60,457 nt of DNA from positions 1 to 60,457 of the forward strand of contig JANQSZ010000027.1 in the NCBI GenBank assembly GCA_028279045.1, read 5' to 3'. The notes under the pieces were generated by a model that saw nothing but the letters and a program-made list of their open reading frames with translations, was not told the DNA's origin and did no database searches. Of the stretch, positions 9,769-59,760 are shown piece by piece; the stretch's first letter is position 1; every line of letters starts with the position of its first letter. Both the position numbers and the translations under genes were made by a program. Source of the DNA: Candidatus Nanoarchaeia archaeon. Its GTDB lineage: Archaea > Nanobdellota > Nanobdellia > Woesearchaeales > UBA10216.

Positions 9769-10578
9769 ATGCTTATCTCTGCAACTGATTTATCATCGTA
9801 TTTGTATTGCCCTCGCAAGCTCTACTTAGCGAAAGTGCTCAAGATCCGCGAGCCTGTAAAGGATGTCATGATTCGCGGTACAGTCATGCACGAAACATTT
9901 GATGGCATCGCATTGCAAGAACAAGCATTAATCGAAGCAATTTCACCATCAACAACCCAGCAAGATTTGTTTGAATCCTACAAAACAACGTATTCGAAAA
10001 TCTTACGAGATGCAATCCTCAAAAACAAAAAAACATTGATGGATGTCAACTTAATTCCTGGCGAATTATTTGTTGATCTCTGGCCGTACGTGCACGGCGA
10101 AGCAGAAACCCGCGTCCAAGACGTTTTCTCGTTTGCAAAAACAAAATCAATCTTCGGACAAGAATTGTGGCAAAAATTAGAACCAAAAGTTCTTTCAGAA
10201 CTCCGCATCGAATCTGAAAACTTGCAATTGAAAGGTATTGTCGATCAGATCCATGTCTTCGAAGACAAACATGTTCCTATCGAACTCAAAACAGGCCGTA
10301 CTCCAATGGAAGGCGTCTGGCCATCCCACAGAATTCAAGTTGGTGTTTACGCTTTGCTTGTCGGCGAAAAGTTCGACACACCAGTGCCGCATGGCATCGT
10401 CCGCTATTTAGAAACCAAACAAGACCGTCCTGTTGCCATGAATCCATTCCTCGAGATGGAAATCAAAGAACTTGTCCAGCAAGTCCAGAACCTTCTAGAG
10501 TCATCAGAGATCCCTGACTGCCAGGAAAAGAACAAAGCATGCATGAAACTCTTCCCTCCAGAAACACTACCGACATAG
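9769..10578 (+). CDS. Cas4-like / RecB-family PD-(D/E)xK exonuclease, stand-alone
   Basis: 269 aa. N-terminal LSSYLYCPRKLYL, nuclease core GIVDQIHV...PIELKTGR, QVGVYALLV, and C-terminal Cys pair DCQEKNKAC. No CRISPR array or other cas genes occur in the window. Confidence 0.75.
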   Translation: MLISATDLSSYLYCPRKLYLAKVLKIREPVKDVMIRGTVMHETFDGIALQEQALIEAISPSTTQQDLFESYKTTYSKILRDAILKNKKTLMDVNLIPGELFVDLWPYVHGEAETRVQDVFSFAKTKSIFGQELWQKLEPKVLSELRIESENLQLKGIVDQIHVFEDKHVPIELKTGRTPMEGVWPSHRIQVGVYALLVGEKFDTPVPHGIVRYLETKQDRPVAMNPFLEMEIKELVQQVQNLLESSEIPDCQEKNKACMKLFPPETLPT

Positions 10579-11314: not shown

Positions 11315-12271
11315 ATGAGCTCTACTCTATGGACTGAAAAGCACAGGCCAACTAATTTTGATGATATTCGCGGCCAAAAAGAGATTATTAGCCGTATTTC
11401 TGCTTTTGTAGAGAAGCAAAACATTCCTCATTTGATGTTTGCAGGACCGCCAGGTGTTGGCAAAACCTCAACTGCTTTAGTCATCGCAAAACAAATGTTC
11501 GGAGAAAACTGGCGCCAAAACGTTCTAGAGTTAAACGCTTCTGATGAGCGGGGTATTGACGTTGTGCGTACAAAAGTGAAAGACTTTGCCCGTACAAGAG
11601 CAATCGGTAACGTTCCCTTCCGTATATGTATTCTCGACGAGTGTGACTCATTAACCAAAGAAGCACAGCAAGCGTTACGAAGAACAATGGAAAACTACAC
11701 GCAAACGTGCCGTTTCATCCTACTCGCTAATTATTCTTCCAAAATTATCGATCCAATTCAAAGCCGGTGCGCAGTTTTCCGCTTCAAGCCGTTATCAAAA
11801 GAGGAAATCTTCAATATTGTTGACATGATTGCTCAGAAAGAGAACGTCAAGGTCTCTCCTGATGGCAAAGAAGCTCTCTATGAAGTAAGCGGTGGCGATT
11901 GCCGCAAGCTAGAGAACATCATGCAATCTGTAGCCGCGATCAACAATGAAGTCACAAATGAGTCTGTTTACTACGTAGCAAGTGCTGCCAAACCAAAAGA
12001 AATAAAAGAAATACTCACACAGTCATTACAGAACAATTTCGAAGGGGCTCGGGGAAAGCTGCTGGAGACCATGTTGAGCCAAGGCCTTTCAGGCTTGGAT
12101 GTCATCCGTCAAATGCAGCAAGAAGTCCTCTCGTTAGACATCGATTCCCGCAAAAAGCTCAAGATGATTGAGAAATGCGGTGATATCGAGTTCAGAATGG
12201 TTGAAGGTGCGGACGAGTTCATTCAACTCGAAGCGCTCCTTAGTCAATTTGCACTATTAGCAGATGCCTAA
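11315..12271 (+). CDS. rfcS: Replication factor C small subunit
   Basis: 318 aa. WTEKHRP, Walker A GPPGVGKT, DEAD-like ILDECD, SRC motif PIQSRCAVFRF. No intein. Confidence 0.95.
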   Translation: MSSTLWTEKHRPTNFDDIRGQKEIISRISAFVEKQNIPHLMFAGPPGVGKTSTALVIAKQMFGENWRQNVLELNASDERGIDVVRTKVKDFARTRAIGNVPFRICILDECDSLTKEAQQALRRTMENYTQTCRFILLANYSSKIIDPIQSRCAVFRFKPLSKEEIFNIVDMIAQKENVKVSPDGKEALYEVSGGDCRKLENIMQSVAAINNEVTNESVYYVASAAKPKEIKEILTQSLQNNFEGARGKLLETMLSQGLSGLDVIRQMQQEVLSLDIDSRKKLKMIEKCGDIEFRMVEGADEFIQLEALLSQFALLADA

Positions 12272-14345
12272 AAACGAGGTGACAAAAAAGAGAAGTGAAG
12301 ACGTTCTAGATACGTTCACCCCTCAAGAGCTTGATCGCCTACAACGCCGTTCTTTAATGAAAGACGATCAAATTGTCAAGCTTCAACGCGAGCTCGACAC
12401 CATCAATTCTTCTCATCGTCATATCGAACAAGAACTTCGCAGCCAGCTCACCGAAAAAAGCAATGAGGTTGCTCAACTTTCTCGTTTATTTACGCAAGCA
12501 GACAAACGTTCGCGCGAAGCTGAAAAGCAATTAGAGTCTCAACTCCGTCGAGAACGTCAACTAATGCGTACTCTACAATCGCAACCAAAGAAAAAGGAAA
12601 CATCTGCACATGAAAAAGTTCTCCAACAAACAGTTGATGAACTTCGGCAACACGTCAAAGATCGAACAGGCGAAATCGAACACCTGGAAACACTTGTAGC
12701 ACGAAAAGAACATATTCTTCTCGAGTTACAAAAGAACGCCGATACCCAAATCGCTCAAAAGGACGAGCAAATCAAAGTTCTCCAGCGTGAAGTTGAGAAA
12801 CGTGATAAGTTTGCTGATCAGCGAGAGGAACTTATTGCATTACGGCAGCAATTCGTCGCCAAGGAAGCGTCCACAAAGGAGCTCGTCAAGGATTTATCTT
12901 CTCTTAAGAAAATAAACGCACAGTACAACGCGCAAATTCAACAAAAACAAACAGAAATCGAAAAAATACGTTCTCAGTTGAAAGATTCCAAAACAAAAGG
13001 CGTTGTCAGCGAAACGCGATCGTTATCAGCAGAGTTTGACACGCTTTCCAAGCAACTCGAGCAGCGCGATCAAGAAATCGCACGATTAAACAAGCTCGGA
13101 TTAACCGATCAACAAGCATACGATGCAACGATACGTCAGATGGATGAGCAAATGAAATCTCGTCTCTCAGAAATAGACCGTCTTACTCAGCTTGTCAACA
13201 CCCGCGACAAAATGTTGCAAGATTTAACCCATAGTTTTGAAACGCAGCTCAATGAAAAGGACAAGCTCGTCGAGAAGATCAAGAGTCAGCTAACCAAGCG
13301 TGCAATTCCAACAGCTCATCAGGAGCAGGAAATTCATCGTCTTGAAGAAGAAATCGCACTCAAAGAAGCTTCAACCAAGTCATTATTGGAAGATTTCGCT
13401 TCCGTGAAGAAGCTTAACACCACACTCACAAAAGAACTCAAGGAATCTGTTGAGAAAATAGAAGCGCTTGAAGCGCAGTACGGCGAACTTCTTAACACAA
13501 CCCGCGTCTCCCGCGAGAAACACATTAAGGATGTTACCGAGAACTACGCACGACGCGAACTCCAGCACAGAAATGAGTTGGAAAAGATGCGCATCAAGAT
13601 CGCTACACAAGAATCTATTCTCAAAGAGAAGCAGCAAGCAATTGATGACATGCTGACTCAATTTTCTACTGTTACCAAGCAACTTCTCGGTATGAGAGGC
13701 AGCGAAGCTCCTGTATTCAAGCAGCCTGCCGTCTCTCAAGATGAAGAACGTTTAGCAAAAGAACTCAAAGAAGAAGCAGAAGAGCTTATGCTGCAAGCAA
13801 AGCAGCGCGAAGAAACAGTGCAGCGTCAAGAGCAACTTCTTCACAAGGAGCAAGAAACCCTCCAGGGAGAGATCGAAGTTCTCAAGCAAGCAGGTATGGA
13901 GCTACGAAGAACAAAAGACTATCTCAAAGATAAGCTTTCAGAAGTTCCTGATTCTATAGAAAAACGTGTAGAACCAAAGGAGCCAGAACCGGTCGAAGAG
14001 CCAGCTCCAGAATTACCAGAGCCTCCTGTGATGGAAGCACCAATTGCAACTCCTGCCATCGAGCCACCTTCTGAAGAGCCGAAGCAAGTTGAAGCTCTCC
14101 CATTACCGAAGGCAGAAGACATCATGTCTCCCCCTCCTCCCCCTAAGATCACTTCTCTTCCACAATCAGCTCACCCTGCTGACGAACCCTCTGTTTTCGG
14201 TCCGTATAGCGAAGAAAACGAAATACATCACATGGTGAATGTTGCATTACAGCACGGCGAAGAACCAAAGCATATCAAGCATTCTCTATTGCAATCTGGC
14301 TACGCAGAAAAAGTCATCGATAAAATTCTTAAGAAGATAAAGTAA
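12264..14345 (+). CDS. Large coiled-coil protein with a Pro/Glu-rich segment and a small C-terminal globular domain
   Basis: 693 aa. It is almost entirely heptad-like E/K/Q/L-rich sequence with an internal duplication, then EPKEPEPVEEPAPELPEPPV...SPPPPPK. No Walker motifs. The start overlaps rfcS by 8 nt. Confidence 0.8.
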   Translation: MPKNEVTKKRSEDVLDTFTPQELDRLQRRSLMKDDQIVKLQRELDTINSSHRHIEQELRSQLTEKSNEVAQLSRLFTQADKRSREAEKQLESQLRRERQLMRTLQSQPKKKETSAHEKVLQQTVDELRQHVKDRTGEIEHLETLVARKEHILLELQKNADTQIAQKDEQIKVLQREVEKRDKFADQREELIALRQQFVAKEASTKELVKDLSSLKKINAQYNAQIQQKQTEIEKIRSQLKDSKTKGVVSETRSLSAEFDTLSKQLEQRDQEIARLNKLGLTDQQAYDATIRQMDEQMKSRLSEIDRLTQLVNTRDKMLQDLTHSFETQLNEKDKLVEKIKSQLTKRAIPTAHQEQEIHRLEEEIALKEASTKSLLEDFASVKKLNTTLTKELKESVEKIEALEAQYGELLNTTRVSREKHIKDVTENYARRELQHRNELEKMRIKIATQESILKEKQQAIDDMLTQFSTVTKQLLGMRGSEAPVFKQPAVSQDEERLAKELKEEAEELMLQAKQREETVQRQEQLLHKEQETLQGEIEVLKQAGMELRRTKDYLKDKLSEVPDSIEKRVEPKEPEPVEEPAPELPEPPVMEAPIATPAIEPPSEEPKQVEALPLPKAEDIMSPPPPPKITSLPQSAHPADEPSVFGPYSEENEIHHMVNVALQHGEEPKHIKHSLLQSGYAEKVIDKILKKIK
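12669..12923 (+). repeat. Internal protein repeat, copy 1 (within the coiled-coil gene)
   Basis: GEIEHLETLVARKEHILLELQ...LIALRQQFVAKEASTKELVKDLSSLKKIN aligns with copy 2 at an offset of about 166 residues. Confidence 0.7.
13167..13424 (+). repeat. Internal protein repeat, copy 2 (within the coiled-coil gene)
   Basis: SEIDRLTQLVNTRDKMLQDLT...IHRLEEEIALKEASTKSLLEDFASVKKLN. It is diverged at nucleotide level, so this is an old duplication. Confidence 0.7.
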
Positions 14346-15299
14346 TTATTGTGATAAGTGTTTTACAATGAGTTCTGTTGACTTAATTTCCTCGTATTCA
14401 TAATCCATGATAACTCGAACAGTCTTTTCTGCGTCAACATCTTCTACCTCTTGCGTACACGTAAAGGTTGCATCTCCGTTTGTTAGGAGTACATATCCTT
14501 CATGATCATCTAGTCCGTCTCTATCAAACAATCCAAGGCATTTTATTGGGTTCGATCCTAGCCCTGTCTGTACAGAGACAAAAACTTTGTTCTCGTCAAC
14601 AAACGAACTTGAATCACAGGAAACACCACTTGTGCTGGTGTCTGATTTGAATATGTTCCCATTACCTCTCTGCGATACCGTAAACGTCAACAAGATCGTA
14701 TCTGTTCCCGCAACGCTTTGCTTGAAACTGGTAATTTGAACTGGAGCTCCGGAATTGTGAATTGTTTTTGTACCGCTTACTTCACATACCCCTTCATCCG
14801 TGTCGAGTAAGTTTTCTCTCATACAGTATTGTCCATTGGCAATAGTTTGATATTGGTAACAGACTTCTGCCCGAACAGGAAACTTAACATTTCCATCAAG
14901 ATTGCCCTTATAGTTCAATCCATCGATGTGAACTTGTGTTTGTGTTCCCGGAATTTCATTTCCTTCTGGATCTTTTCGTACTGGTTCTAAATCATCAACA
15001 GGCGGCTGTCTTTGCAACTCACCTAGCCCTTTGTCAAAATCCGCTGGGAAAAGTCCACTAATTGTGACGTGTGCTTGACTTCTCAGCACCTTGTGTTCTC
15101 CTTCATTTGTCAACTTAACAATGATATCAAACGGAAACTGCCCATTGTCTGCCACTTCTTTTGGCGGAGCATTTTCCAAGAACTCTATAATTAGCCCATT
15201 GGTACCGCCAATAAACGGCGTATCATTACCAGGAGCAGTCTCTGTAGTACATGCTGCTATGAAAACAACAAGTCCTAGGAGAAGGTACCCTCTTTTCAT
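14346..15299 (-). CDS. Secreted Cys-rich lipoprotein, paralogue A (envelope operon)
   Basis: 317 aa. Signal peptide plus lipobox-like MKRGYLLLGLVVFIAAC. It is collinear with the paralogue at 15335-16267 (IEFL, NEG, CYQY, GAPV, Y.Y...s..iv. C-terminus). A TTTAAATA-like element lies about 23 nt upstream. Confidence 0.75.
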   Translation of the reverse strand: MKRGYLLLGLVVFIAACTTETAPGNDTPFIGGTNGLIIEFLENAPPKEVADNGQFPFDIIVKLTNEGEHKVLRSQAHVTISGLFPADFDKGLGELQRQPPVDDLEPVRKDPEGNEIPGTQTQVHIDGLNYKGNLDGNVKFPVRAEVCYQYQTIANGQYCMRENLLDTDEGVCEVSGTKTIHNSGAPVQITSFKQSVAGTDTILLTFTVSQRGNGNIFKSDTSTSGVSCDSSSFVDENKVFVSVQTGLGSNPIKCLGLFDRDGLDDHEGYVLLTNGDATFTCTQEVEDVDAEKTVRVIMDYEYEEIKSTELIVKHLSQ

Positions 15300-15334: not shown

Positions 15335-16267
15335 CTATTCGATAGTAACAATCTTTGACTCCGTCACTCTGTATCCATAATTCAAAATAACGCGTAAGTT
15401 CCTAGTAAATTCTGGGTCATTCACACTAAATCGCTGTCCTGATCTACACGTTACAAAATTCTCCTTATCAGTTCTACTAAAGCTCAGCGTTTCATCGCAA
15501 TCCAGAACATCATTTCCAAACATAGCACTTACCCGTACCTTGTTCAAGTATTCAGGCTCAATAGAGATATCATTACATCCAGTGCGGTAATGGTTTTCAT
15601 CAAGAATATCTCCATCTCCAACATTCTTCAGGAATATTCTGAAAGTAGGTCGTACATGCGTGATTCCAGTACTTCCTTCTGCTTCCAATAATGGCGAAAC
15701 TTTTGTAACAGCTACTGGCGCTCCCTGACTCTTCAACCGTATGTCTTTTGTCTCACATGTCGATTCAATGTCTGTAATCGCAAATTCGTTTGTGTTAACA
15801 CAAATAGGGGTTCCTGCTCGTGTTTCATATTGATAGCACGCAGAAACCTCAACTATGGTGTTCCATCGGTTGCTTGGCGGCAGTTCAACACGATGCATTA
15901 AAGCGTCGAAATCAAGAAGTTCTCTCCCTCCCACCTTTGCGTTAGGGATTCGTTCTCTTCCAAACAAGGTAAATACTCTTTCAGTGCCTCTTGGATCGTT
16001 CGGTTCAATGACTTCTTTTACTGTTGTAAGCGTAAGAAACACATCTTTTGCTTCAACAGCACCTTCGTTTATTACTTCAACACCAATTTTCATTGGGCGA
16101 GGTTGATTTATCGGATTGACGTACGTATCTGGAAAGAGTTTATCAAGAAATTCTATAGTAACACCATCATTTCCAGAGTATGCATGTGCAGTACTCGGCA
16201 GACTACCGTCTCCACTAGTACACGCTGCCAAAAACACCAACAGCCCAACAATCAACCAGAGTTTCAT
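15335..16267 (-). CDS. Secreted Cys-rich lipoprotein, paralogue B (envelope operon)
   Basis: 310 aa. MKLWLIVGLLVFLAAC lipobox-like signal. Its ATG overlaps the stop of the upstream gene (ATGA). Confidence 0.75.
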   Translation of the reverse strand: MKLWLIVGLLVFLAACTSGDGSLPSTAHAYSGNDGVTIEFLDKLFPDTYVNPINQPRPMKIGVEVINEGAVEAKDVFLTLTTVKEVIEPNDPRGTERVFTLFGRERIPNAKVGGRELLDFDALMHRVELPPSNRWNTIVEVSACYQYETRAGTPICVNTNEFAITDIESTCETKDIRLKSQGAPVAVTKVSPLLEAEGSTGITHVRPTFRIFLKNVGDGDILDENHYRTGCNDISIEPEYLNKVRVSAMFGNDVLDCDETLSFSRTDKENFVTCRSGQRFSVNDPEFTRNLRVILNYGYRVTESKIVTIE

Positions 16268-18732
16268 ATCTCATCCTCCGAGATAAACTCACTCACCGGC
16301 GCACAAAATTCTTCTTCCCCATCCCAACGAGATTCAAATTCATCAACGTAATTATTCGCTTTATCCGGACAGGCCCCTGCACCATTATAACCGCGCGCTG
16401 CAGCATACCAACCACTTAGTCCACCTTCACAATTCAATCCAGTTTTTTCATAAGCTTCAAACTGTTCTCTGAAATGATTCGCTCCAGCAAAAATATTGCA
16501 TCTCATATCAAATGCTGTTTCCCCGTCGCATTCAGGAATGTCACAAATTCCTCGATCTTCAGCATCCAAATCATAGCAGCCAGGGTGAGCGCGAGAGGCG
16601 CTATTGATTTGCATTGCTCCATAAGAATTTTCAGGGTCTTTTGATTTACGTGCTGTTTCACCATCTACGCTATGTAAAAAGTCGTGCCCCGTTTCAATGT
16701 CTACTATTGCCAAGAGCGCAGTTGCAGGTACGTCATATCGGCACGCAGCTTGGCGAACAAGCTCCAGAACTTGCGATTGCTGCTCAGATGGGTTTTCAGG
16801 AACAACAACTCTGTTTCCAGTAGGCGCATCAGTATTAGAGGTGGTAATTCCTGTGTAGACAACATCAACTTCCGTCGACACGCGATAATCAATATTTGCA
16901 GTTGTAATTATGTTGATCTTTCGTCTTCCATTTGTATCCGCAAGGATCTTACTTGCATCTTTCAAATTAATAGGACATTCATATCGTTTAATGATGTCAG
17001 GATCAATTATTTTTTCTGTTTCTGAACTTCGCAAGCGATAAGTTTTCCTTCCATTACTATCTGAGACCTGATCGAAATCACAATTATCGCCAGTGGTCAA
17101 TTCAATATCTTTTGGCATAGTAAATTCTAAACTATTCACCTTCAACAAGGATCCATCCCATAATTTGTGATTCTCAAACGCAACTGAATATTCATTAACT
17201 TCAGATTCCGGGCCTACAGGAATGAAGAAACCAAACATTTCTACATTATACAATCCAAATATGACTGGCCCTGCCGTCGAGACTGCTTGTGGTGTAACCT
17301 GGGCAAGTTGATCTCTTGACAGTGGCGGGTGCGGTTCTTCTGTTTCAATTTCTAATTGCCTAAAGGCCTCTATTTCATTCTCATGTATCAAATACACTTC
17401 GTACCAATTCTGAACATCCATGCTGTAATCAACACTAAACGTCACTACGCCACCGCTATCTTCCAACTCACCAGCCTCAACGCGACAGCTCAGTTCCTTT
17501 GGCCCGCGATAAGGGAAGGGTACTTTAATAAATTCATTTTCTTGAATCTGCCCTCGTTCCCCAGGCTCGGTCTGGCACATTACTCCTTCTACCATAATCT
17601 CCTTATTCACCAAATTAGAACCAGGTATTTCTGACAAAATAACCGAAGGCGTAATATCGTTCGGATCGTCAAAGTAATTATTAATAGGGCGCTGTGCCCC
17701 TCCGGCGACCGTCCAATAGTCCCGCAGGACTAGCCCAGTTCGCTCCCCAGTTTGTTGATTGTAATAATCAACTCCCTGTGCTTGTTCTAATCGTTTATCC
17801 CACGACAACCTAAAATCTGTCCACAGTTCATCAAATCCTTCTGGTATGCTCCGCGTCAGTTCTTCAGCACGTTGTCGTTGTTCAGCATCAATAGCCTGAC
17901 TAAATTCGTTGGATGCTCCGCCTGCAACTGTATAAATAATTGGCATGTAGATGAAAATAACAAGTGCTATTGCTGCAATGTATTTCCATACTCTTCCTCT
18001 ATACAAGAAGAACCCATACAAGTACATGATCGGCACAAACTGTGCAGGCGGCAGAGAAAAGCCAGCCACGCCTACGCCCGATAGTCCACCTAAGCCTGGT
18101 AAAAATGAGAGTGAACCAATCGTAATATTTGCAAAGTAAGGGTAGAACCAAACAAGCAATGTCAATTTAATGTATGTCTTCAATCGATTTCCTTGAACTT
18201 CAAACACTGCCCACGCTACAAAGATAGAAAACAAGTACAAGAACATGATAGGACCAAACTTAATCCCGCCTTCTATAATCGCAATTCCCAATCCTGGTCG
18301 AACAAACCCTGTTGCAAGATCCATCCAGTGCAGTATACCAAAGAAGAGAAAATAGGCAAAAGGTAATTGTGCGAATGCTTTTGGTAAAGAATCTCCTGTG
18401 ATCGGGGCCGCAGATATTCCCGGCATCTTCTTCTTCCCAGCCCGAACTTTCGCTCTACTAAATTTGGCAAATTGCTTTCCTTGCCGCACAAACCCACTGT
18501 AGAATCGATCACGATCTTTGTTCGCTTCTTTAGCAGCATCTTTATTCTGCTTCAGCGCCTTTTCATCTTCTCCGATTTCGTCATAGGCAAAAGCAGATTG
18601 TTTTTGTTGCTCTGATGAAAGCATGTCATGTACTTGGTCATCATCGCGACTTACTCTAAAGGGACCTATCTTAAATCCTCTTTTTCCCATGTCTTGGAGT
18701 CGTTTCACTATGTTATCACTACCCGTAAACAC
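16264..18732 (-). CDS. Polytopic membrane protein with a beta-rich ectodomain and a C-terminal SLT-type lytic transglycosylase domain
   Basis: 822 aa with a GTG start on the ORF track. The N-terminal region of about 125 aa is charged. About 5-6 hydrophobic helices occupy residues ~125-290. The ectodomain has modules ending like the lipoproteins (TFSVDYSMDVQNWYEVYLI; INIITTANIDYRVSTEVDVVY). The C-terminus carries all three SLT motifs: VDIETG, YGAMQIN and ARGYNGAG. Confidence 0.8.
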   Translation of the reverse strand: MFTGSDNIVKRLQDMGKRGFKIGPFRVSRDDDQVHDMLSSEQQKQSAFAYDEIGEDEKALKQNKDAAKEANKDRDRFYSGFVRQGKQFAKFSRAKVRAGKKKMPGISAAPITGDSLPKAFAQLPFAYFLFFGILHWMDLATGFVRPGLGIAIIEGGIKFGPIMFLYLFSIFVAWAVFEVQGNRLKTYIKLTLLVWFYPYFANITIGSLSFLPGLGGLSGVGVAGFSLPPAQFVPIMYLYGFFLYRGRVWKYIAAIALVIFIYMPIIYTVAGGASNEFSQAIDAEQRQRAEELTRSIPEGFDELWTDFRLSWDKRLEQAQGVDYYNQQTGERTGLVLRDYWTVAGGAQRPINNYFDDPNDITPSVILSEIPGSNLVNKEIMVEGVMCQTEPGERGQIQENEFIKVPFPYRGPKELSCRVEAGELEDSGGVVTFSVDYSMDVQNWYEVYLIHENEIEAFRQLEIETEEPHPPLSRDQLAQVTPQAVSTAGPVIFGLYNVEMFGFFIPVGPESEVNEYSVAFENHKLWDGSLLKVNSLEFTMPKDIELTTGDNCDFDQVSDSNGRKTYRLRSSETEKIIDPDIIKRYECPINLKDASKILADTNGRRKINIITTANIDYRVSTEVDVVYTGITTSNTDAPTGNRVVVPENPSEQQSQVLELVRQAACRYDVPATALLAIVDIETGHDFLHSVDGETARKSKDPENSYGAMQINSASRAHPGCYDLDAEDRGICDIPECDGETAFDMRCNIFAGANHFREQFEAYEKTGLNCEGGLSGWYAAARGYNGAGACPDKANNYVDEFESRWDGEEEFCAPVSEFISEDEI

Positions 18733-18764: not shown

Positions 18765-19946
18765 TTAATCTTTTAGTAATTCTACTTCTAAATCTACGAT
18801 ATGCAGCGTAGTCCGCGGCTCAATTCGGACAAAATTATTCCCATCTTCAATGAACCGCGTGATATCTTTAGTATAGTTGAAATCCCTCTGATCAAACGAA
18901 GTGCGTCTATTATTAATATTCAAATTAGCAGCCTTTCGCTCATCATCATCTACCATGTGGATTCGCAGTTCAGCTTTCATCGAACCATTCTCAATCCGGT
19001 CAAATTGTGTTTCGTTCACATCAAAGAAATAAATAGGGAAAATCGGTTTCTCAAGTTCTGTATTCACCGACACTTGATCAATCAAGTACTTTCCACTTTC
19101 AGCACTAAACCGAACAGTGTTCCTTCCTTCCACAATATCATCAGGGTCAACATTCAAGCGTACTGGTGATCCGCAATCAGGTACGCTAGATGACAACAAC
19201 ACTTCATTTAACGTAATGCGCAATCGTCCAACATCTCGAATTGTACACTCTACGAAGTAAATTAAATGTGCTTCCTCAATGTTTCCTGCTTCTTCCCGGC
19301 TCACTAAGAAATTATTCTCAGCGTCGCTGTTATCAGCATTCTCAACCGTTCCTGTAATCTTTACGTTCCGCAAATCATAGAAGTTTGAACTAAAAAAGTT
19401 TAAAGGACCAACAGGGCTTGCCCGAAATTCAAGCACATTTTCTTCCTGCAGTATTCCCAAATTAATTGGTGCAAATACATCAGTTACTTCTCCATTAAAC
19501 AATTCATCATCATTCAACATGATGATAAGCCGCCCTTTGTGATCGTTAACTGTCAAGCTCAACTGCGCATTTTCTGTGCTAGGATCTGTAATCAAAGCCA
19601 TAGTCTTTGTTGTCTGCTCAGATCTGCTAGTCTCAACAAATACAGACTGTAATTCTTTCAGCACTTTGTCCTCTTTTGACTTGAAGAGGTTCACACTAGG
19701 CAGTTTATGTTGGAATTCTCGATCAGTCTCCTTGAAGATAGTGCCCGGACTCTCATCCAGTACAACCTCTTCATCATCCTCTACGTCTTCGTCATCATCA
19801 GAATCTGTATCTTCATCTAGTAGGTCTGCCCGGTCTTCAGGGGGCAAGAAGAGAATATAGAGTATTATGAACGCTGCAATAACCATTACGAGAATAGCAG
19901 CACTACTACCACCTTGTCCTTTTTTTCGACGCACAGTAGTCTTCAC
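18765..19946 (-). CDS. Membrane-anchored extracellular protein with a pilin-like N-terminus and a poly-acidic tract (first gene of the envelope operon)
   Basis: 393 aa on the ORF track, starting at GTG 19946. The N-terminus is (MKTTV)RRKKGQGGSSAAILVMVIAAFIILYILFL followed by DEDTDSDDDEDVEDDEE. Promoter geometry favours the in-frame GTG at 19934 as the true start. Confidence 0.7.
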   Translation of the reverse strand: MKTTVRRKKGQGGSSAAILVMVIAAFIILYILFLPPEDRADLLDEDTDSDDDEDVEDDEEVVLDESPGTIFKETDREFQHKLPSVNLFKSKEDKVLKELQSVFVETSRSEQTTKTMALITDPSTENAQLSLTVNDHKGRLIIMLNDDELFNGEVTDVFAPINLGILQEENVLEFRASPVGPLNFFSSNFYDLRNVKITGTVENADNSDAENNFLVSREEAGNIEEAHLIYFVECTIRDVGRLRITLNEVLLSSSVPDCGSPVRLNVDPDDIVEGRNTVRFSAESGKYLIDQVSVNTELEKPIFPIYFFDVNETQFDRIENGSMKAELRIHMVDDDERKAANLNINNRRTSFDQRDFNYTKDITRFIEDGNNFVRIEPRTTLHIVDLEVELLKD

Positions 19947-19957
19947 TCTATAGTTAG

Positions 19958-19967
19958 ATATTTAAAT
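19958..19967. promoter_or_regulatory. Palindromic TATA element (ATATTTAAAT), probably shared by the divergent pelota gene and the envelope operon
   Basis: The TTTAAA centre at about 19963.5 is 26-27 nt from the pelota ATG at 19990, and about 29 nt from GTG 19934 on the other strand. Confidence 0.45.
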
Positions 19968-54601: not shown

Positions 54602-56743
54602 TTAGTCGCATGAAGTGTAACCGCAGGATTCGCAGGTTCCACATCCCTCCTTATCGATCAGCTGTGTATCGCACTCTGGACAAAGATCAGGTTGGTGTTC
54701 GTCTCCGATAGTAACCACTTGATCACTCATACTTTGATCTCGATAAATCGTAATTCCTTTACATCCCAATTTGTACGCTTGTAAATAGGCGTTCTCCACG
54801 TCATCAATAGTTGCACTACTTGGGAAGTTAATCGTCTTGGATATTGCACCGTCAACATATTTTTGGAATGCAGCTTGCATCCGCACGTGCGATTCCGGAG
54901 AAATGTCCATTCCCGTTACAAACACGCGTTTGATTGCATCTGGAATGTCTGCAATCCTCTGCACACTCCCTCCTTGTGCAATTCTTCTCATTAAATCAAG
55001 ACTGTAAAACTCTTCTTCTTTTGCAGCACGTTCAAATAACGGATTGCTGTACACCATTTCTGTTCCCATAACCGTCTTGATATACGACAATGCGAAGTTT
55101 GGTTCGCATCCGCTCGATACATCTGCCAATAAACTGATAGTTCCTGTCGGCGATATCGCCGTTACACCAGAATTTCGCATCTGACGGCCTTGCTGTTGGT
55201 GAATAGATCCTTCCCATCGAGGATATGCTCCTCGCTTCTTTGCAAGATCTTGTGAAGCGTTATGTGCAGTTTTCTGAATAAAGCTCATCACTTTCTCTGC
55301 AGTTTCAAACCCAGATTCACTGTCATAGGATATACGCAGCGCATACAACATGTCTGCAAAGCCCATAATTCCCAGTCCGATCTTTCGGGTTGCTTTACAA
55401 ACAGCTTCCATTTCTTCTAGTGGATATGAAGTAGCGTCAACAGCATTGTCCAAGAAGTGAACAGCTCCCTTAACAGCTTCCTCCAACCCTTTCCAGTCAA
55501 TCTTCTGGTCTTCCTTAACAAAAGACTTCAAATTAATTGATCCGAAAGGGCTGCTTTCATACGGAAGCATCGGTTGTTCTCCACAAGGGCTTGTACTTTC
55601 CACGTCTCCCAAGTGTCGTCCGCCGTGGAGATCATTCATTCTGTCAATAAATACTATGCCGGGATCTCCTGTTTTCCACGCGTTCTGCAATAGCACGTTA
55701 AACACATTTCGTGCCTTAAGCCGCTTTACTGATTTTCCAGTCCGTGGATTAATTAAATCGTAATGTTCATCAGCCAGCACTGCTTCCATGAACGCATTTG
55801 TAGCCGCTACTGAAATGTTGAAGTTCTGCAGTGTCTGTTTGTCTTCTTTCAAATGTATGAATGATAAAATATCAGGGTGATCTATGCGTAAAATGCCCAT
55901 ATTTGCTCCGCTTCTCTTTCCGCCTTGCAGTACTGCTTCCGCAGAACTATCAAACACTTTCATGAATGATATTGGTCCGCCTGCAACACCTTGTTTTCGA
56001 TGCACAGTATCTCCTGCAGGACGCAAGCGTGAGAAATTAAACCCTGTTCCGCCACCGCGTTGTTGAATAATCGCAGCATGCTTTATCGCATCATAGATAC
56101 TTTCCATGCTGTCGTAAATCGGCAGCACGTAACAACTGCTGAGCTGCGGCACATCTGTTCCAGCATTCATCAGCGTCGGTGATGTTGGCAAGAATTGCAA
56201 TTCTGTCATCATCGAATAGAACTTATCTGCAGACTGTTGCACTTCTTGGTCGCTTCCACCATATTGTCGATCAACTTCTGCAAGTGATTGTGAAACTCTC
56301 CGCAGCATATCCTCGGGAGTTTCATTAAGTGTTCCATCTGCGCTCTTCCGCAGATAACGTTGTTCTAGAATCTTCAATGCGTTATGTGAAAAATTAAGTT
56401 CTTTGATCTTGGCAGCTTTTTCTTCTCCAAGAATCAAGCTTCTTTTCTCTCTATCTGATGTTCGTTCGTGTCGATACAAAATGTACGCTTTTGCTGTCTT
56501 CGCATGCGCACTCCGTATCAATACTTCTTCCGTTATGTCTTGAATGTCTTCGACATGCGGCATTCCTTCTGTGAATCGTTGGCGTACGACTTCTTCTACT
56601 TTCTGAGCAAGTTCTTTAGAAGTTTTCTTATCCTTTCCACCTACGGATTGTGCAGCTTTGAAAATAGCATCTGCTATTTTTTCCACTTCAAATTCCGCAA
56701 TGCTTCCATCACGTTTCTTTACGTGAAATCGTGTAGGGAGCAT
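54602..56743 (-). CDS. Class II (adenosylcobalamin) ribonucleotide reductase paralogue with substituted active-site Asn and Cys
   Basis: I trimmed the ORF 54602-56767 to ATG 56743, which has a GAGGGG SD 5 nt upstream and lies 11 nt after the upstream stop. N-terminal ATP-cone, LSSCYV, STSPCGEQPMLPYESSPFGSINL, and a C-terminal Cys-rich finger CPEC...CGTCESCG. Confidence 0.85.
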   Translation of the reverse strand: MLPTRFHVKKRDGSIAEFEVEKIADAIFKAAQSVGGKDKKTSKELAQKVEEVVRQRFTEGMPHVEDIQDITEEVLIRSAHAKTAKAYILYRHERTSDREKRSLILGEEKAAKIKELNFSHNALKILEQRYLRKSADGTLNETPEDMLRRVSQSLAEVDRQYGGSDQEVQQSADKFYSMMTELQFLPTSPTLMNAGTDVPQLSSCYVLPIYDSMESIYDAIKHAAIIQQRGGGTGFNFSRLRPAGDTVHRKQGVAGGPISFMKVFDSSAEAVLQGGKRSGANMGILRIDHPDILSFIHLKEDKQTLQNFNISVAATNAFMEAVLADEHYDLINPRTGKSVKRLKARNVFNVLLQNAWKTGDPGIVFIDRMNDLHGGRHLGDVESTSPCGEQPMLPYESSPFGSINLKSFVKEDQKIDWKGLEEAVKGAVHFLDNAVDATSYPLEEMEAVCKATRKIGLGIMGFADMLYALRISYDSESGFETAEKVMSFIQKTAHNASQDLAKKRGAYPRWEGSIHQQQGRQMRNSGVTAISPTGTISLLADVSSGCEPNFALSYIKTVMGTEMVYSNPLFERAAKEEEFYSLDLMRRIAQGGSVQRIADIPDAIKRVFVTGMDISPESHVRMQAAFQKYVDGAISKTINFPSSATIDDVENAYLQAYKLGCKGITIYRDQSMSDQVVTIGDEHQPDLCPECDTQLIDKEGCGTCESCGYTSCD

Positions 56744-56754
56744 GTGTTCCCCTC

Positions 56755-59700
56755 TCATATATCGCACTTACTAAATCCACAATTCTCGTCCATGCACGTA
56801 TGGCAACCATTCTCAAGTTTTAAGGTTTGCTTTCCGCATTCAGGGCAGGCGCTCAGCTGCATTCCTGCAGCTTCAATATCTGCTTCTTGAACAGCTTCCT
56901 TCTCCTGCTTCTGCATGTTCAGCATTCCTGCCTGTTCACTCACCACGCCATTCTTAATAGCGTGATACACCGTTGTCAACGATCCGTCTGGCATGGTCAA
57001 CACACTATCTCCGTGCACTTCCATGGTTTCTCCATTCATTTCAATAGTAAACGTCTTATCTTTCAATTCTTGGAATTGTGTTTTCTTTCCTTCAACGCTC
57101 AGGATTGGGTATCGGGATCCATCTCTATAGATAGTAATTCCTTTCAACCCTTTCTTCCACGCTTCCAAATAAATCTTCGAAATAACTTCTGGTTCAATAT
57201 CTTCTGCCATATTGACTGTAGATGAAATACTGTGGTCTACATACTTTTGACAGACACCTTGAATCTCCACGCGTCTTTCAGGATCAACGTGGTGTGCTGT
57301 TCTGAAAAAGTGCGCAGGCAAAATTTCTCTCAATTCATCTTCGTTTTCACACTTTTCAACAGCGTCTTTCAATCCTTTTTCTTCTATGTACGCATTTACA
57401 GTATTGTGGAACACCTTAAACAATTTGTTTCCAAACGATTCTGATCTCCGCGTATAATACAGTGAGAAAATAGGCTCAACACCACCACTCACACCAACAT
57501 AATATTTGTTTCCGCTCACGTATCCCAAAATAATGTTTGAGATTGTTCCCGTCGGTGCAATCGAAAGAACTGCAATATTTCTCAATCCTTTCTGTTTAAT
57601 TTGTTCTTTTGTTTCATCGCTTAGCGATTCTACAAAGAACGCACCTTCTTTATATTTATCATAATCAAAAATTGGCGAACTCCCTTTTTCCGCTGCCAAA
57701 TCAGCGCTTGCCTGATAACTGCTATCTGCGATTTCTTTCATGACACGCCCGATAACTTCCATCCCTTCATCACTATCATATCCTTTTCCGATCTGGTTCA
57801 ACATGTCTGCGATTCCCATCACACCAAGACCTAATCTTCGAGTTTCACCCGCGGCTACGCGTTGTTTGTCCAACGCATTTAACGTTTCATTCCAAATAAC
57901 AACATTATCCAAGAACCGCGTTAAGATTCGTGCAGACTCATCAAGTCCTTGCCAGTCTACTTGCGCGTTTTCTCCGTATCCATTCTTCACAAACCGCGAC
58001 AAGTTTAACGAACCAAGGTTGCACGCTCCTCCGTCTTCTAGTGGAACTTCTCCGCACGGATTCGTACTTGCAATAGGTCGACCAACATAGTTAGATGGTG
58101 AGTACTTTGTCATCGTACTCCAGAAGATTAATCCAGGTTCTGCAGTTTGGTAGTTTCCCTCGACAAAGTCATTCCATAGTGTTCGTGCTTTCACCATTTG
58201 TCGGATTTCTCCGGTGTTGCTTGTGTTGTAATACAGCATGTAGTCTCCTGCACGCCGTACAGCATATTCTGCATCTCCAGAAACAACATAGTCAGCAAAA
58301 ATATCTCGCTTTGCCTCTTTGTCAAACTCTTCTTCTGCGATAGTTTGCGCATTATGTGATGTTAAGAATGCATTTGCAGCTTGCAATGAATCAAACACGC
58401 CCACTTCTTCATACTTATCAATTGGACGTTCTGGAATTCCGTATGAGTAATGAACGTTGCCTGTTTGCGGCGCACTTAACGTGTTTACTTCAGGATCTTT
58501 CTTGTACACCAAAATCTTATCCGCTCCATGTCTGACTTGCTCTTCAACAGCTTGCATGAATTCATCAGTTACCTTCAAACTAATGTTCGCAAATCGAACT
58601 TGTGTGTTTTCCCGAACTTGTTTCTCAATAATCCGCAACTGATTCTCATTAAATTCTCCAGACCAGCTGCATTGTTCCTTAATCTGGCTTGTAACCCAGT
58701 TAGAATCTTTCTTTGCTTTCATGAACAGCGGACTATCTGGGTGTTTAACATCTACCGTCAACATAAGCGCTCCTCGTCGGCCAGATTGCCCAATTAGCCC
58801 AGTAGTCAACGAGTAGATTTCCATAAACGAAACAGCACCGGTACTATTGTCTGCTGCATTATGCACAATCGATCCTTTTGGTCGCAGTGAGGAGATATCA
58901 ACTCCGATTCCTCCTCCGTAGCTGTATGTTCGCGCACATTCATATGCAGCTTTGTAAATAGATTCAATATCATCATTCGCTATGACTGATACAAAGCAGT
59001 TAGCAAGTGTTTTCAACCGGTACAGATCTCCTGCTCCCGCAATAACCCGTCCGCCTGGCAAGAAGTGCCCTTGAAACAGTTCAGTGTAAAATTTCTCTGC
59101 CCATTCTTTCTGCTTTTCTTCTGTGGTTTCAACCGCAGCCACAAAAGCAGCCAGTCGAGTGAACATTTGTTCAGGCTGCGTCTCAATCAGTTCATTTGTC
59201 AAGTCTTTCAAGAAGTACTTCTTCTTGTAAATGTTCGTTGCAAGTTCATTTCCTTGCAAGTAGTTCCCTTCAGGATGAACAGGGAGTTTTCCAGCTTTCT
59301 GTTGCTCTTTCAGGTAGAACAGCATATTCTTGTACGCTTCAATTCTGTCATACCCCATCAAGCTGGCAAGCTTACTCTTGTGAGCAAACATGTTCATGAG
59401 CGCAGCAGTCTCTTTGTCGTCTTCCCGGGAAGACTTCGCAGCTTGCTCCCGGAGCTCAGCTCGCTTTGCTCTATACAGAATAAAGGATTTGGCAGTCTTA
59501 TCATGCCCATTTTTGATCAGAATTTCTTCCACAAGGTCTTGGATGTCTTCTACAGTTGGAGCAGCATTTGCAAATTTCTCACTGGCTCGCGCTACTACTT
59601 GCCCTGCAAGTTGATCAGCTAATTCGCGGTTTGTACCTCCGCTTGCCATGGCTGCTTTGAAAATTACAGCAGAAATCTTTGCAGTGTCAAAATCTACTTC

Positions 59701-59760
59701 ATCACCGCTTCTCTTCCGTATGCGGGTTACTCTATTTGTCTCTACTTCTGTATATGCCAT
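56755..59760 (-). CDS. nrdJ: Class II (adenosylcobalamin) ribonucleotide reductase, long form with the full catalytic signature
   Basis: 1001 aa. ATP-cone (VTRIRKRSGDEVDFDTAKI), LANCFV, STNPCGEVPLEDGGACNLGSLNL, and a C-terminal finger CPECG...CHTC...C. Confidence 0.9.
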   Translation of the reverse strand: MAYTEVETNRVTRIRKRSGDEVDFDTAKISAVIFKAAMASGGTNRELADQLAGQVVARASEKFANAAPTVEDIQDLVEEILIKNGHDKTAKSFILYRAKRAELREQAAKSSREDDKETAALMNMFAHKSKLASLMGYDRIEAYKNMLFYLKEQQKAGKLPVHPEGNYLQGNELATNIYKKKYFLKDLTNELIETQPEQMFTRLAAFVAAVETTEEKQKEWAEKFYTELFQGHFLPGGRVIAGAGDLYRLKTLANCFVSVIANDDIESIYKAAYECARTYSYGGGIGVDISSLRPKGSIVHNAADNSTGAVSFMEIYSLTTGLIGQSGRRGALMLTVDVKHPDSPLFMKAKKDSNWVTSQIKEQCSWSGEFNENQLRIIEKQVRENTQVRFANISLKVTDEFMQAVEEQVRHGADKILVYKKDPEVNTLSAPQTGNVHYSYGIPERPIDKYEEVGVFDSLQAANAFLTSHNAQTIAEEEFDKEAKRDIFADYVVSGDAEYAVRRAGDYMLYYNTSNTGEIRQMVKARTLWNDFVEGNYQTAEPGLIFWSTMTKYSPSNYVGRPIASTNPCGEVPLEDGGACNLGSLNLSRFVKNGYGENAQVDWQGLDESARILTRFLDNVVIWNETLNALDKQRVAAGETRRLGLGVMGIADMLNQIGKGYDSDEGMEVIGRVMKEIADSSYQASADLAAEKGSSPIFDYDKYKEGAFFVESLSDETKEQIKQKGLRNIAVLSIAPTGTISNIILGYVSGNKYYVGVSGGVEPIFSLYYTRRSESFGNKLFKVFHNTVNAYIEEKGLKDAVEKCENEDELREILPAHFFRTAHHVDPERRVEIQGVCQKYVDHSISSTVNMAEDIEPEVISKIYLEAWKKGLKGITIYRDGSRYPILSVEGKKTQFQELKDKTFTIEMNGETMEVHGDSVLTMPDGSLTTVYHAIKNGVVSEQAGMLNMQKQEKEAVQEADIEAAGMQLSACPECGKQTLKLENGCHTCMDENCGFSKCDI

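Follow-up and report, generated by a model that had tools for sequence, protein, structure and literature searches.

The family-1 lytic transglycosylases (GH23), among them Slt70, MltC, MltE and MltF, have the same motif order and lysozyme-like fold as the domain described here, and in both sequence-profile and structure comparisons they match it best. EtgA of the EPEC type III system and the VirB1-type enzymes are small SLT/lysozyme hybrids that belong to a larger apparatus and open murein locally; among the PDB profile matches, EtgA ranks second. Wall-piercing phage lysins (PRD1 P7, tail lysins and tape-measure LT_GEWL proteins) dominate the viral fold matches. The c-type lysozymes (GH22) are small, disulfide-rich domains with an E-S ... 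(D)-Y-G-I-(F/L/M)-Q-I-N core that is common to our domain. In Gram-positive conjugation, PrgK, TraG of pIP501 and CwlT carry an SLT or muramidase module together with M23, CHAP or NlpC/P60 on a single-pass membrane anchor. Scattered GH23 domains are also the main genomic argument for bacterial hosts of Woesearchaeota and Pacearchaeota, and we know of no member of either group for which a bacterial host has been demonstrated. Both the occurrence of GH23 in these archaea and the inference that bacterial walls are the target have been published (Castelle 2015 and 2021, Vigneron 2022), and their GH23 proteins have been read as attacking bacterial walls (PMC8204110, PMC9723730, PMC11537232). Archaeal peptidoglycan hydrolases kill bacteria experimentally (PMC12352652).

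The window, the whole stretch of 60,457 nucleotides analysed here, contains genes for Pelota, RFC, PAN, an archaeal PheRS and a Sec61-type SecY, in agreement with the archaeal host named in the preliminary description. The gene of interest (16264..18732, minus strand) starts with GTG in the list of open reading frames and encodes an 822-aa membrane protein; its GC content is 0.429, compared to 0.427 for the window. Dissection against homologues divided the protein, from its N-terminus on, into a predicted cytoplasmic segment, five TM helices, a middle domain rich in beta structure and, at the C-terminus, a GH23/SLT-like domain. The N-terminal ~120 residues (18373..18732, minus strand) are rich in Lys and Arg, with 25 K+R in residues 1-127, and are predicted to be cytoplasmic; no homologue matched them in the dissection. 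Residues 121-272 (17917..18372, minus strand) form a polytopic membrane anchor with about five hydrophobic helices at the hydropathy peaks. Homologues have 3-7 predicted TM helices at this position. The positive charges in alternate loops suggest an N-in/C-out topology, which would place the C-terminus, and hence the GH23-like domain, outside the cell. The conserved cysteines in the middle and SLT-like domains further support this location. The earlier assignment as a membrane protein thus agrees with the five hydrophobic helices and the predicted external C-terminus.

The C-terminal domain (residues 640-811; 16300..16815, minus strand) encloses the segment originally proposed, 16333-16779, which corresponds to residues 652-800 of the minus-strand reading frame; every string quoted for it is present in the translation. 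The predicted catalytic acid is Glu680 (16693..16695, minus strand), which is invariant in all 28 aligned family members. It is followed by Thr681, and the family consensus is E-S, with Ser or Thr at this position in 23 of the 28. Glu680 aligns with the ES of MltC and is located at the C-terminus of helix 31-42 of the structural model, where the local pLDDT is about 95. Residues 705-710 (16603..16620, minus strand) read GAMQIN and are equivalent to GLMQ of the family-1 lytic transglycosylases and GI(F/L)QIN of the c-type lysozymes. Their G, Q and I are invariant, and M and N are each conserved in 24/28. When the family profile was compared with the PDB, this motif aligned with GLMQI of MltC and GIMQIN of EtgA. 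The first two of the three motifs originally recognised are thus both present and invariant at E, G, Q and I. The third holds in part: Y782-N783-G784 (16381..16389, minus strand) is conserved, with Y and G invariant and N present in 27/28, but it is one residue shorter than the canonical AYNxG. Gly directly follows Asn, and the Ala is replaced in the family consensus LRxYNG. A fourth, C-terminal family motif is YV, in which Tyr795 (16348..16350, minus strand) is invariant (28/28).

Altogether, E680, G705, Q708, I709, N746, Y782, G784 and Y795 are invariant in the 28-sequence alignment, and C735, C745, C768, C788, W775, A778 and N783 are at least 90% conserved. In EtgA the active site comprises E42, Q65, Y116, N117 and Y133 (PMC10880428), and E680, Q708, Y782, N783 and Y795 match this set; Tyr795 probably corresponds to Y133 (PMC10880428). 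Six family-conserved cysteines (719, 730, 735, 745, 768 and 788; 16369..16578, minus strand) are presumed from their conservation and joint-loss patterns to form three disulfides. Four of them are in a ~25-residue insertion between GxMQIN and the next helix. Of the eight cysteines in this stretch, these six may thus support the disulfide-stabilised enzyme envisaged earlier, while C664 and C810 are private to the window protein.

The assignment of this domain rests on its homologues as much as on its motifs. A phmmer search with the whole 822-aa protein against 1.84 billion representatives returned 43 homologues, most of which match the GH23-like stretch, with E-values down to 4e-12. The domain is common to 27 distant homologues. 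The conservation across the 28 sequences and these E-values indicate that the motif stretch is not a chance occurrence. Its closest relatives, at 41-48% identity, are in the 1950-2293-aa proteins P0002, P0005 and P0015 of Woesearchaeota MAGs (L003-L005), the best matches being P0002 (2252 aa, 46%, 4e-12) and P0005 (1950 aa, 48%). One further protein, P0023 (2372 aa), has seven repeats matching residues 696-740 and was excluded as a spurious compositional match that lacks the motifs. The word-indexed homologue search with the 822-aa protein found only the protein itself, and with the domain profile it added only three more PF01464 proteins. No match to the 822-aa protein was found in NCBIfam, PHROGs or a single-sequence phmmer search of the PDB; matches to CD28 were dismissed as chance.

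A scan with Pfam SLT (PF01464), proposed in the preliminary description as a check, left the window protein on its own below threshold, at 13.9 bits (E 0.04) against a gathering score of 21.3, although the match spans profile positions 2-111 of 117. Its homologues do pass. The profile matches 17 of 44 family members (best 2.9e-11), and seven of them score above the gathering threshold: P0014 (43.4 bits), P0018 (39.2), P0030 (35.9), P0032 (24.2), P0012 (23.9), P0010 (22.2) and P0020 (21.5). Against the PDB, the family profile matches MltC (5e-7), EtgA (1.8e-5) and g-type lysozyme (3.4e-5) in alignments that bring the catalytic Glu and GLMQ into register, and it also finds hen-type (c-type) lysozymes (E 1e-4 to 3e-3). 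The c-type profile PF00062 has no match in the window protein, and among the homologues only one weak sub-threshold match, in P0010 (14.9 bits).

The comparison of predicted structures also supports the original assignment. The AlphaFold (AF2) model of the domain has a pLDDT of 88 and a pTM of 0.86, and its Foldseek matches in the PDB and the viral structure library are almost exclusively GH23 lytic transglycosylases and lysozyme-like folds. In the PDB these include MltE, MltC, MltF, Slt and g-lysozyme, with a probability of about 1.0 and TM scores of 0.42-0.53 (0.42-0.54 over both libraries); the E-values are modest (2.5e-3 at best) and the RMSDs of the top matches large. In the viral library they are LT_GEWL tail lysins, the PRD1 transglycosylase and tape-measure proteins, with a best E-value of 1.9e-4. 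Taken by itself, the window protein formally falls under the refuting outcome named in the preliminary description, the lack of a significant SLT HMM match. The homologue scores, the family profile comparison with the PDB and the AlphaFold/Foldseek result are stronger than the single sub-threshold scan and override it. By homology, fold and active-site conservation, the ~170 C-terminal residues are a divergent, cysteine-rich member of the GH23/SLT (goose-lysozyme-like) superfamily. Compared with family-1 enzymes, the window protein is set apart by its sub-threshold Pfam score, its Cys insertion, its YNG in place of AYNxG, its polytopic archaeal scaffold, and its origin in an organism with no murein of its own.

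The chemistry of the domain can be narrowed by comparison with EtgA and the c-type lysozymes. Ser703 (16624..16626, minus strand), two residues before the invariant Gly, stands where hen lysozyme has Asp52 and EtgA has Asp60, residues whose role has been described (PMC10880428). The family has Ser here in 15 of 28 members and Asp in 10; P0003 is one of the homologues with Asp. The Ser at the Asp52 position argues against a GH22-type mechanism. The c-type lysozymes also differ in that only their first half aligns, the C-terminal YNG and Y of the window domain being of GH23 type. The likeness to EtgA, read from sequence alone, fits a lytic transglycosylase or a muramidase (PMC10880428). We predict that the domain is either a lytic transglycosylase or a hydrolytic muramidase or g-type lysozyme, and Ser703 appears compatible with lytic transglycosylase as well as g-type lysozyme chemistry.

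Residues 282-640 (16813..17889, minus strand) form the middle domain, which is mostly beta and, in the alignments, has four near-invariant cysteines (386, 416, 551 and 586). It is likely a scaffold or stalk of unclassified fold. Its AF2 model is poor (pLDDT 59), and the only Foldseek matches are generic beta-sandwich adhesins and integrins with TM scores of 0.1-0.2. Its profile has no match in the PDB or in the word-indexed homologue search. The middle domain and the lipobox proteins encoded downstream (see below) have similar-looking strand patterns and a terminal Y-x-Y. A paralogous relationship between them was considered and rejected as unsupported, as hhalign gave an E-value of 0.024 and a probability of 2% over 41 columns.

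The TM-plus-middle architecture is common to P0003, P0004, P0009, P0010, P0019, P0026, P0028 and other homologues but not to the giant proteins, and different catalytic heads are found on it. In a census of the 44 hits of the exhaustive search, this scaffold carries Amidase_2 in P0017 (1e-29), M23 plus an SLT-like domain in P0042, M23 alone in P0024, and NlpC/P60 plus an SLT-like domain in P0004. In P0022, M23 plus an SLT-like domain follows the TM helices, but a middle domain was not detected. A hydrolase head is missing altogether from some members of the scaffold family. Of the 12 SLT-bearing TM-anchored proteins that were scanned individually, only 2 reach the Pfam SLT threshold. Amidase_2, M23 and NlpC/P60 act on the stem peptides and cross-links of murein. 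The exchange of heads from four unrelated murein hydrolase classes on one scaffold suggests that murein is also the substrate of the window domain, and is much stronger evidence than a single domain match. It reinforces the view, put forward in the preliminary description, that the substrate is probably the wall of another organism. The module combinations resemble those of PrgK, TraG and CwlT, in that membrane-anchored combinations of this kind recur on the archaeal scaffold in relatives. Those proteins, however, are bacterial, are encoded in conjugation gene sets and have no similarity to the archaeal proteins outside the hydrolase modules.

The gene is the second in a four-gene, translationally coupled operon, all of whose products are predicted to be membrane-anchored and extracytoplasmic. 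The upstream gene (18765..19946, minus strand) encodes a 393-aa protein whose orthologues occupy the corresponding position in L001, L017 and L019 (35-47% identity). At its N-terminus, an invariant K-G-Q precedes ~20 hydrophobic residues, an arrangement that resembles a class III (prepilin-type) signal peptide; its globular part has no Pfam match, and its family has none in the PDB. The first downstream gene (15335..16267, minus strand) encodes a 310-aa lipobox protein (LAAC), and its ATG overlaps the stop codon of the 822-aa gene (ATGA). The second (14346..15299, minus strand) encodes a 317-aa lipobox protein, a paralogue of the first (BLASTP 2e-14) with the same seven-Cys pattern and with orthologues in L001, L002 and L019 (2e-48 to 2e-65). 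A profile search of the PDB with the lipobox family found no match.

Besides the window, five other Woesearchaeota/Nanoarchaeota genomes or assemblies (L001, L002, L017, L019 and L020) have this arrangement; some of their contigs span the block only partly. The recurring order is PheRS, TrmB and Pelota, a 385-393-aa protein, the scaffold-hydrolase, two to three lipobox paralogues, and then RFC, PRC, TyrRS and M24. The 12 loci from the GTDB scan, which used a six-sequence alignment and a single peptide pattern, are a sample and not a census. The homologues carry the labels Candidatus Woesearchaeota, Nanoarchaeota, Aenigmarchaeota or Iainarchaeum. Since the locus is syntenic between Pelota and RFC in distant relatives, the operon looks vertically inherited and not recently imported. 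A recent horizontal transfer island was rejected on this synteny and on a GC content equal to that of the window. A phage or mobile-element origin was rejected as well, there being no PHROGs matches and no mobile-element genes nearby. The gene neighbours are Pelota, TrmB, PheRS, RFC, TyrRS, M24 and PAN. The 10 kb on either side contain neither a VirB4/VirD4-like ATPase nor any other one for secretion, and no needle or virion genes were found near the operon. Unlike EtgA and the VirB1-type enzymes, then, the window protein is encoded outside any secretion or conjugation gene set, is tethered by its own five-helix anchor, and has Ser in place of EtgA's Asp60.

The DPANN GH23 proteins described earlier (fam00969 of Castelle 2021; AR20 of Castelle 2015; Vigneron 2022) have the same host lineage and the same proposed role. 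The fam00969 giants, compared here by description, reach about 3000 aa and are secreted, while the window protein has 822 aa and five TM helices. Unlike the giant secreted DPANN proteins, it is also encoded in a conserved operon of four to five genes. We found no description of the scaffold or of the operon in the literature.

Combining these data, we consider it probable that the 822-aa protein displays a Glu680-dependent GH23-like domain that cuts bacterial murein at the surface of a Woesearchaeota-type DPANN archaeon. In this mechanism, Glu680 would be the single catalytic acid of a domain that cleaves glycan strands. The domain would be located outside the cell, at the tip of the beta-rich middle domain and held to the membrane by the five helices. 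It would cut MurNAc-beta-1,4-GlcNAc bonds where bacterial murein touches the archaeal surface, so that a bacterial host or prey may have its wall locally breached or gripped, in a manner akin to that of specialised secretion-system lytic transglycosylases and of virion-associated phage lysins.

The tether to the cell's own membrane, and an operon that is core and vertically inherited, fit housekeeping of the archaeon's own envelope equally well. The enzyme could be an autolysin or space-maker that remodels the glycan of its own envelope, or clears room for the pilin-like or lipobox structure of the same cell, with no attack involved. The place of the operon among housekeeping genes in every genome examined and the prepilin-like N-terminus of the upstream partner agree with such a function. 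We nevertheless regard it as unlikely. Murein is the target of the Amidase_2, M23 and NlpC/P60 heads that the scaffold bears in relatives, and the 60-kb window yielded no Mur-type genes, although the latter is weak evidence. To our knowledge, no archaea other than the pseudomurein methanogens make a murein-like wall. For DPANN, nothing on such walls is reported in PMC10117817.

The murein-directed set of heads is also in line with scavenging, in which surface enzymes digest free sacculi or wall debris of dead bacteria for amino sugars and amino acids. Peptidoglycan of dead bacteria has been proposed as a nutrient source for Pacearchaeota (PMC11537232). However, an enzyme that is tethered to the membrane and has no recognisable wall-binding module is badly suited to a diffuse substrate, and there are no genes for muropeptide uptake or catabolism beside the operon. 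We therefore give scavenging a low probability.

The fold alone does not fix the substrate, because a GH124 cellulase, which is the top single PDB match (rank 1), and a GH23 chitinase (rank 39) are among the Foldseek matches. The domain could thus act on a beta-1,4-linked polymer other than murein, for example chitin, chitooligosaccharides, an exopolysaccharide or the glycan of a glycoprotein. This is quite improbable, as the sequence-profile matches are murein enzymes and lysozymes, the other heads found on the scaffold are an amidase or murein peptidases, and the viral structure matches are all wall-piercing lysins. Least probable of all is a catalytically dead adhesin that binds glycan strands for attachment only, a role considered by Castelle et al. 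2021 and compatible with the large divergence from canonical SLT, because the catalytic Glu and the active-site-type residues are invariant in 28 sequences of 23-35% identity, the pattern of an active enzyme.

The murein-cutting function that we favour may be part of something larger. We suggest, tentatively and with more doubt than conviction, that the four-gene operon encodes an undescribed surface apparatus that defines a Woesearchaeota/Nanoarchaeota lineage. It would consist of the protein with the pilin-like N-terminus, the five-helix scaffold with its beta stalk and two or three lipobox paralogues, and the scaffold would bear interchangeable murein-degrading heads (SLT-like, M23, NlpC/P60 or Amidase_2). 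As the operon is passed on vertically and keeps its place at a housekeeping locus, wall breaching would in that case be ancestral and obligatory.

Our analysis has implications for how such proteins are recognised. Annotation by score thresholds routinely overlooks the divergent, cysteine-rich GH23 subfamily, and the NCBI name of the orthologues is 'hypothetical protein'. Chimney Pacearchaeota were scored as having no GH23 enzyme (PMC11537232), which may be an example of this. If the operon does encode a surface apparatus, standard annotation misses most of it. The operon as a whole appears to be a fixed component of the chromosome that is passed on vertically. The 170-residue domain, its scaffold and the three partner proteins provide a concrete, clonable candidate for contact between an archaeon and a bacterium, and the operon could serve as a marker for surveying which DPANN lineages likely live on bacteria. 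If wall breaching is indeed ancestral and obligatory, so would be the clade's dependence on bacteria, and not archaea, as hosts.

The segment at 16333-16779 (minus strand), assigned in a preliminary description to a complete SLT-type lytic transglycosylase domain, encodes residues 652-800 of an 822-aa protein (ORF 16264-18732, minus strand, listed with a GTG start). All the strings quoted in that description are present in the translation, and the minus-strand codons of Glu680 (16693-16695), GAMQIN (16603-16620), YNG (16381-16389) and Tyr795 (16348-16350) were verified. The archaeal origin of the window is confirmed by its gene content: Pelota, the RFC small subunit, a PAN-type AAA ATPase, archaeal PheRS α and β, SecY with a Sec61 plug, Hef, FEN1, ribosomal proteins L3 and L4, and ribonucleotide reductase. 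GC content is flat (0.41-0.44), with 0.429 for the 822-aa gene and 0.427 for the window. tRNA and Rfam searches of the window gave no match. In the ribonucleotide reductase region, two tandem overlapping ORFs on the minus strand (54602-56767, 721 aa; 56755-59760, 1001 aa) each contain a full ATP-cone and large subunit; one shows a split barrel match and the other a stretched one, for which an insertion, an intein or a duplication may be responsible. A 269-aa stand-alone Cas4/PD-(D/E)XK nuclease (9769-10578, plus strand) lies amid housekeeping genes, and no CRISPR array or cas operon was seen in the scanned ORFs.

On its own, the 822-aa sequence does not pass the Pfam HMM check suggested in the preliminary description: it stays below the SLT (PF01464) gathering score (13.9 against 21.3 bits, E = 0.04), although the match covers profile positions 2-111 of 117. 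Searches of NCBIfam and PHROGs and a single-sequence search of the PDB gave no match, and a word-indexed search among 5.8 billion proteins retrieved only the protein itself. The SLT assignment is instead supported by homologues, the family profile and structure prediction. When 1.84 billion cluster representatives were searched exhaustively with phmmer, 43 distant homologues emerged (numbered with a P; E = 4e-12 to 1e-3), the majority matching precisely residues 650-800. Pfam SLT is matched at E < 0.01 by 17 of the 44 proteins, and its gathering score is exceeded by seven: P0014 (43.4 bits), P0018 (39.2), P0030 (35.9), P0032 (24.2), P0012 (23.9), P0010 (22.2) and P0020 (21.5). In a 28-sequence alignment of the domain, whose members share just 23-35% overall identity with the query, Glu680, Gly705, Gln708, Ile709, Asn746, Tyr782, Gly784 and Tyr795 are invariant, and Cys735, Cys745, Cys768, Cys788, Trp775, Ala778 and Asn783 nearly so. 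The resulting profile matches solved structures of MltC (5e-7), EtgA (1.8e-5), goose-type lysozymes (3.4e-5) and, at 1e-4 and weaker, c-type lysozymes, with E-S and G-L-M-Q-I aligned residue for residue. The AlphaFold2 model from this alignment is confident (pLDDT 88, pTM 0.86) and places the Glu at the C-terminal end of a helix, followed by a small β lobe with GAMQIN. Against the PDB, Foldseek retrieved Slt and MltE, the structures originally suggested for comparison, together with MltC, MltF, LtgA, g-type lysozymes, and two further enzymes that share the fold, a GH124 cellulase and a GH23 chitinase (probability ~1.0, TM 0.42-0.53, modest E-values of 2.5e-3 to 0.1). Matches in a viral library were exclusively LT_GEWL proteins (best E 1.9e-4): tail lysins, tape-measure and internal virion proteins, and the PRD1 transglycosylase. 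We assign the domain with high confidence to the GH23/lysozyme-like superfamily as a divergent member; its nearest group is the family-1 lytic transglycosylases.

The 822-aa gene is the second in a four-gene run on the minus strand. The first encodes a 393-aa protein (18765-19946) and is always directly upstream of the scaffold-hydrolase gene, as we call the 822-aa gene and its relatives. Downstream lie genes for a 310-aa (15335-16267; its ATG overlaps the preceding stop as ATGA) and a 317-aa (14346-15299, the last of the run) lipobox protein. These two are paralogues (2e-14) with an identical seven-Cys pattern, made up of a lipobox-like Cys (position 16-17) and six others that are conserved, and 2-3 tandem copies follow every scaffold-hydrolase gene examined (loci L001, L002 and L015-L020); a copy is also found downstream of the Amidase_2 variant, on short contigs. 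Four orthologues in the 393-aa family share an invariant K-G-Q, after which come ~20 hydrophobic residues and LF(L/I)PP. We take this N-terminus to resemble an archaeal class III (prepilin-type) signal peptide; the globular part is large and its family unassigned. Neither the 393-aa nor the lipobox family has a relative in Pfam or the PDB. The 393-aa gene and Pelota start in opposite directions only 19 bp apart (19947-19965), so the promoters must lie inside coding sequence unless the transcripts are leaderless. At the other end lies a gene (12264-14345, plus strand) whose start overlaps the RFC stop and whose 3' end abuts the convergent 317-aa gene base-to-base. It encodes a 693-aa coiled-coil protein that has no Cys and is rich in Pro/Glu in its C-terminal part, and it is missing at the equivalent position of L001, L002 and L019.

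HMMs of the four families confirmed that the block, in the order 385-393-aa gene, scaffold-hydrolase gene and 2-3 lipobox paralogues, recurs in GCA_003695435.1, GCA_021733325.1, GCA_016180195.1, GCA_964359455.1 and one ENA assembly, some contigs spanning only part of it. It lies between Pelota/TrmB/PheRS and RFC/PRC/TyrRS/M24/PAN. The homologues are labelled Candidatus Woesearchaeota, Nanoarchaeota and Aenigmarchaeota, and a GTDB scan with a single peptide pattern found 11 DPANN loci, including the AR15 chromosome. Its sole non-DPANN locus, L011 (MHFY01000095.1), is a 6.2-kb contig from an Omnitrophica WOR_2 bin, with the match in a 112-aa ORF; the contig is so short that mis-binning and transfer are indistinguishable. 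Given this synteny and distribution, the operon belongs to the vertically inherited core of a Woesearchaeota-type clade and is not a recent import. Such inheritance would suit a housekeeping autolysin acting on the archaeon's own envelope, but neither a murein-like polymer nor Mur genes are known for these archaea, which makes this role unlikely; scavenging of wall debris is similarly doubtful.

Hydropathy of the 822-aa protein indicates about five helices (residues 121-272). Its first 127 residues are highly basic and Lys/Arg clusters occur in alternate loops (178-189 and 245-251), predicting an N-in, C-out topology. The middle domain (residues 282-640), common to 24 homologues, contains four near-invariant Cys; its AlphaFold2 model is poor (pLDDT 59, all-β), and neither Foldseek nor a PDB profile search assigned a fold class. 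This scaffold of helices and middle domain is constant across the family and the C-terminal head is swapped. The head is SLT-like alone in the window protein, P0003, P0009, P0010, P0019, P0026, P0028 and others, NlpC/P60 plus SLT-like in P0004, M23 plus SLT-like in P0042, M23 alone in P0024, Amidase_2 alone in P0017 (1e-29) and SLT-like plus fn3 in P0032. The tail is Cys-rich and of no assigned type in P0007, P0025, P0033 and P0034, and five scaffold members lack a head. P0022 carries M23 plus SLT-like after its helices, with no middle domain detected. That four unrelated murein hydrolase classes share one scaffold is the strongest argument that murein is probably the substrate of the SLT-like domain; a non-murein glycan is improbable.

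The SLT-like domain also occurs in small (~240-580 aa) and very large (1950-2310 aa) proteins of these archaea. Its nearest relatives (41-48% identity) are P0002, P0005 and P0015 (1950-2293 aa; Woesearchaeota loci L003-L005), which are invisible to routine annotation because they have no Pfam match at E 0.01. Among 12 individually scanned membrane-anchored proteins bearing the domain, just two reach the Pfam SLT threshold, and orthologues are named 'hypothetical protein' at NCBI.

The invariant Glu and motif residues contradict a catalytically dead adhesin, which is very improbable. The third motif reads Y-N-G rather than A-Y-N-x-G; a fourth, Tyr795-Val, is the counterpart of the C-terminal Tyr of SLT domains. 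Six cysteines (719, 730, 735, 745, 768 and 788) are conserved in the family; Cys664 and Cys810 are private to the window protein. Some homologues jointly lack 719 with 730 or 735, or 768 with 788, which fits three predicted disulfides. Residue 703 (16624-16626), two before the invariant Gly, corresponds to Asp52 of hen lysozyme and Asp60 of EtgA. It is Ser in the window protein; its column has Ser in 15 and Asp in 10 of the 28 sequences, so muramidase-like and transglycosylase-like enzymes may coexist in the family. The invariant residues map onto the EtgA active-site set (E42, Q65, Y116, N117 and Y133; PMC10880428). Product analysis is needed to assign hybrid enzymes like EtgA to either class (PMC10880428), and the same applies here.

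Earlier publications describe domains of the GH23 or murein-like lytic transglycosylase type in Woese- and Pacearchaeota and infer bacterial walls as their target (Rinke 2013 and Castelle 2015, as cited in Castelle 2021, PMC8204110; Vigneron 2022, PMC9723730; PMC10936187; PMC11537232). The core idea of the preliminary description is thus correct and already known. Peptidoglycan hydrolases are reported to be prominent in Nanoarchaeota, and killing of bacteria by archaeal M23 enzymes has been demonstrated (PMC12352652). In the literature searched, we found no description of the cysteine-rich sub-threshold SLT-like subfamily, the five-helix scaffold with exchangeable heads, or the conserved operon of four to five genes between Pelota and RFC.

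The analysis shows homology, fold, invariant residues of active-site type, domain architecture, exchange of heads and synteny. Beyond this, we propose that the 822-aa protein inserts N-in by its five helices, which would place the middle and SLT-like domains, stabilised by disulfides, outside the cell. Glu680 would protonate the glycosidic oxygen of MurNAc-β-1,4-GlcNAc. As position 703 offers no second carboxylate, the reaction could end by attack of the C6 hydroxyl, as in lytic transglycosylases, or of water, as in g-type lysozymes. Taken as a whole, the reading of a GH23-like domain that acts on murein in a host or prey wall is reasonably likely; the host- or prey-wall role itself is slightly favoured. 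Because the enzyme is tethered, its action would be limited to murein touching the archaeal surface. Such a reach would suit an enzyme that locally breaches or grips the wall of a bacterial partner, by analogy with the EtgA/VirB1 enzymes and phage virion lysins.
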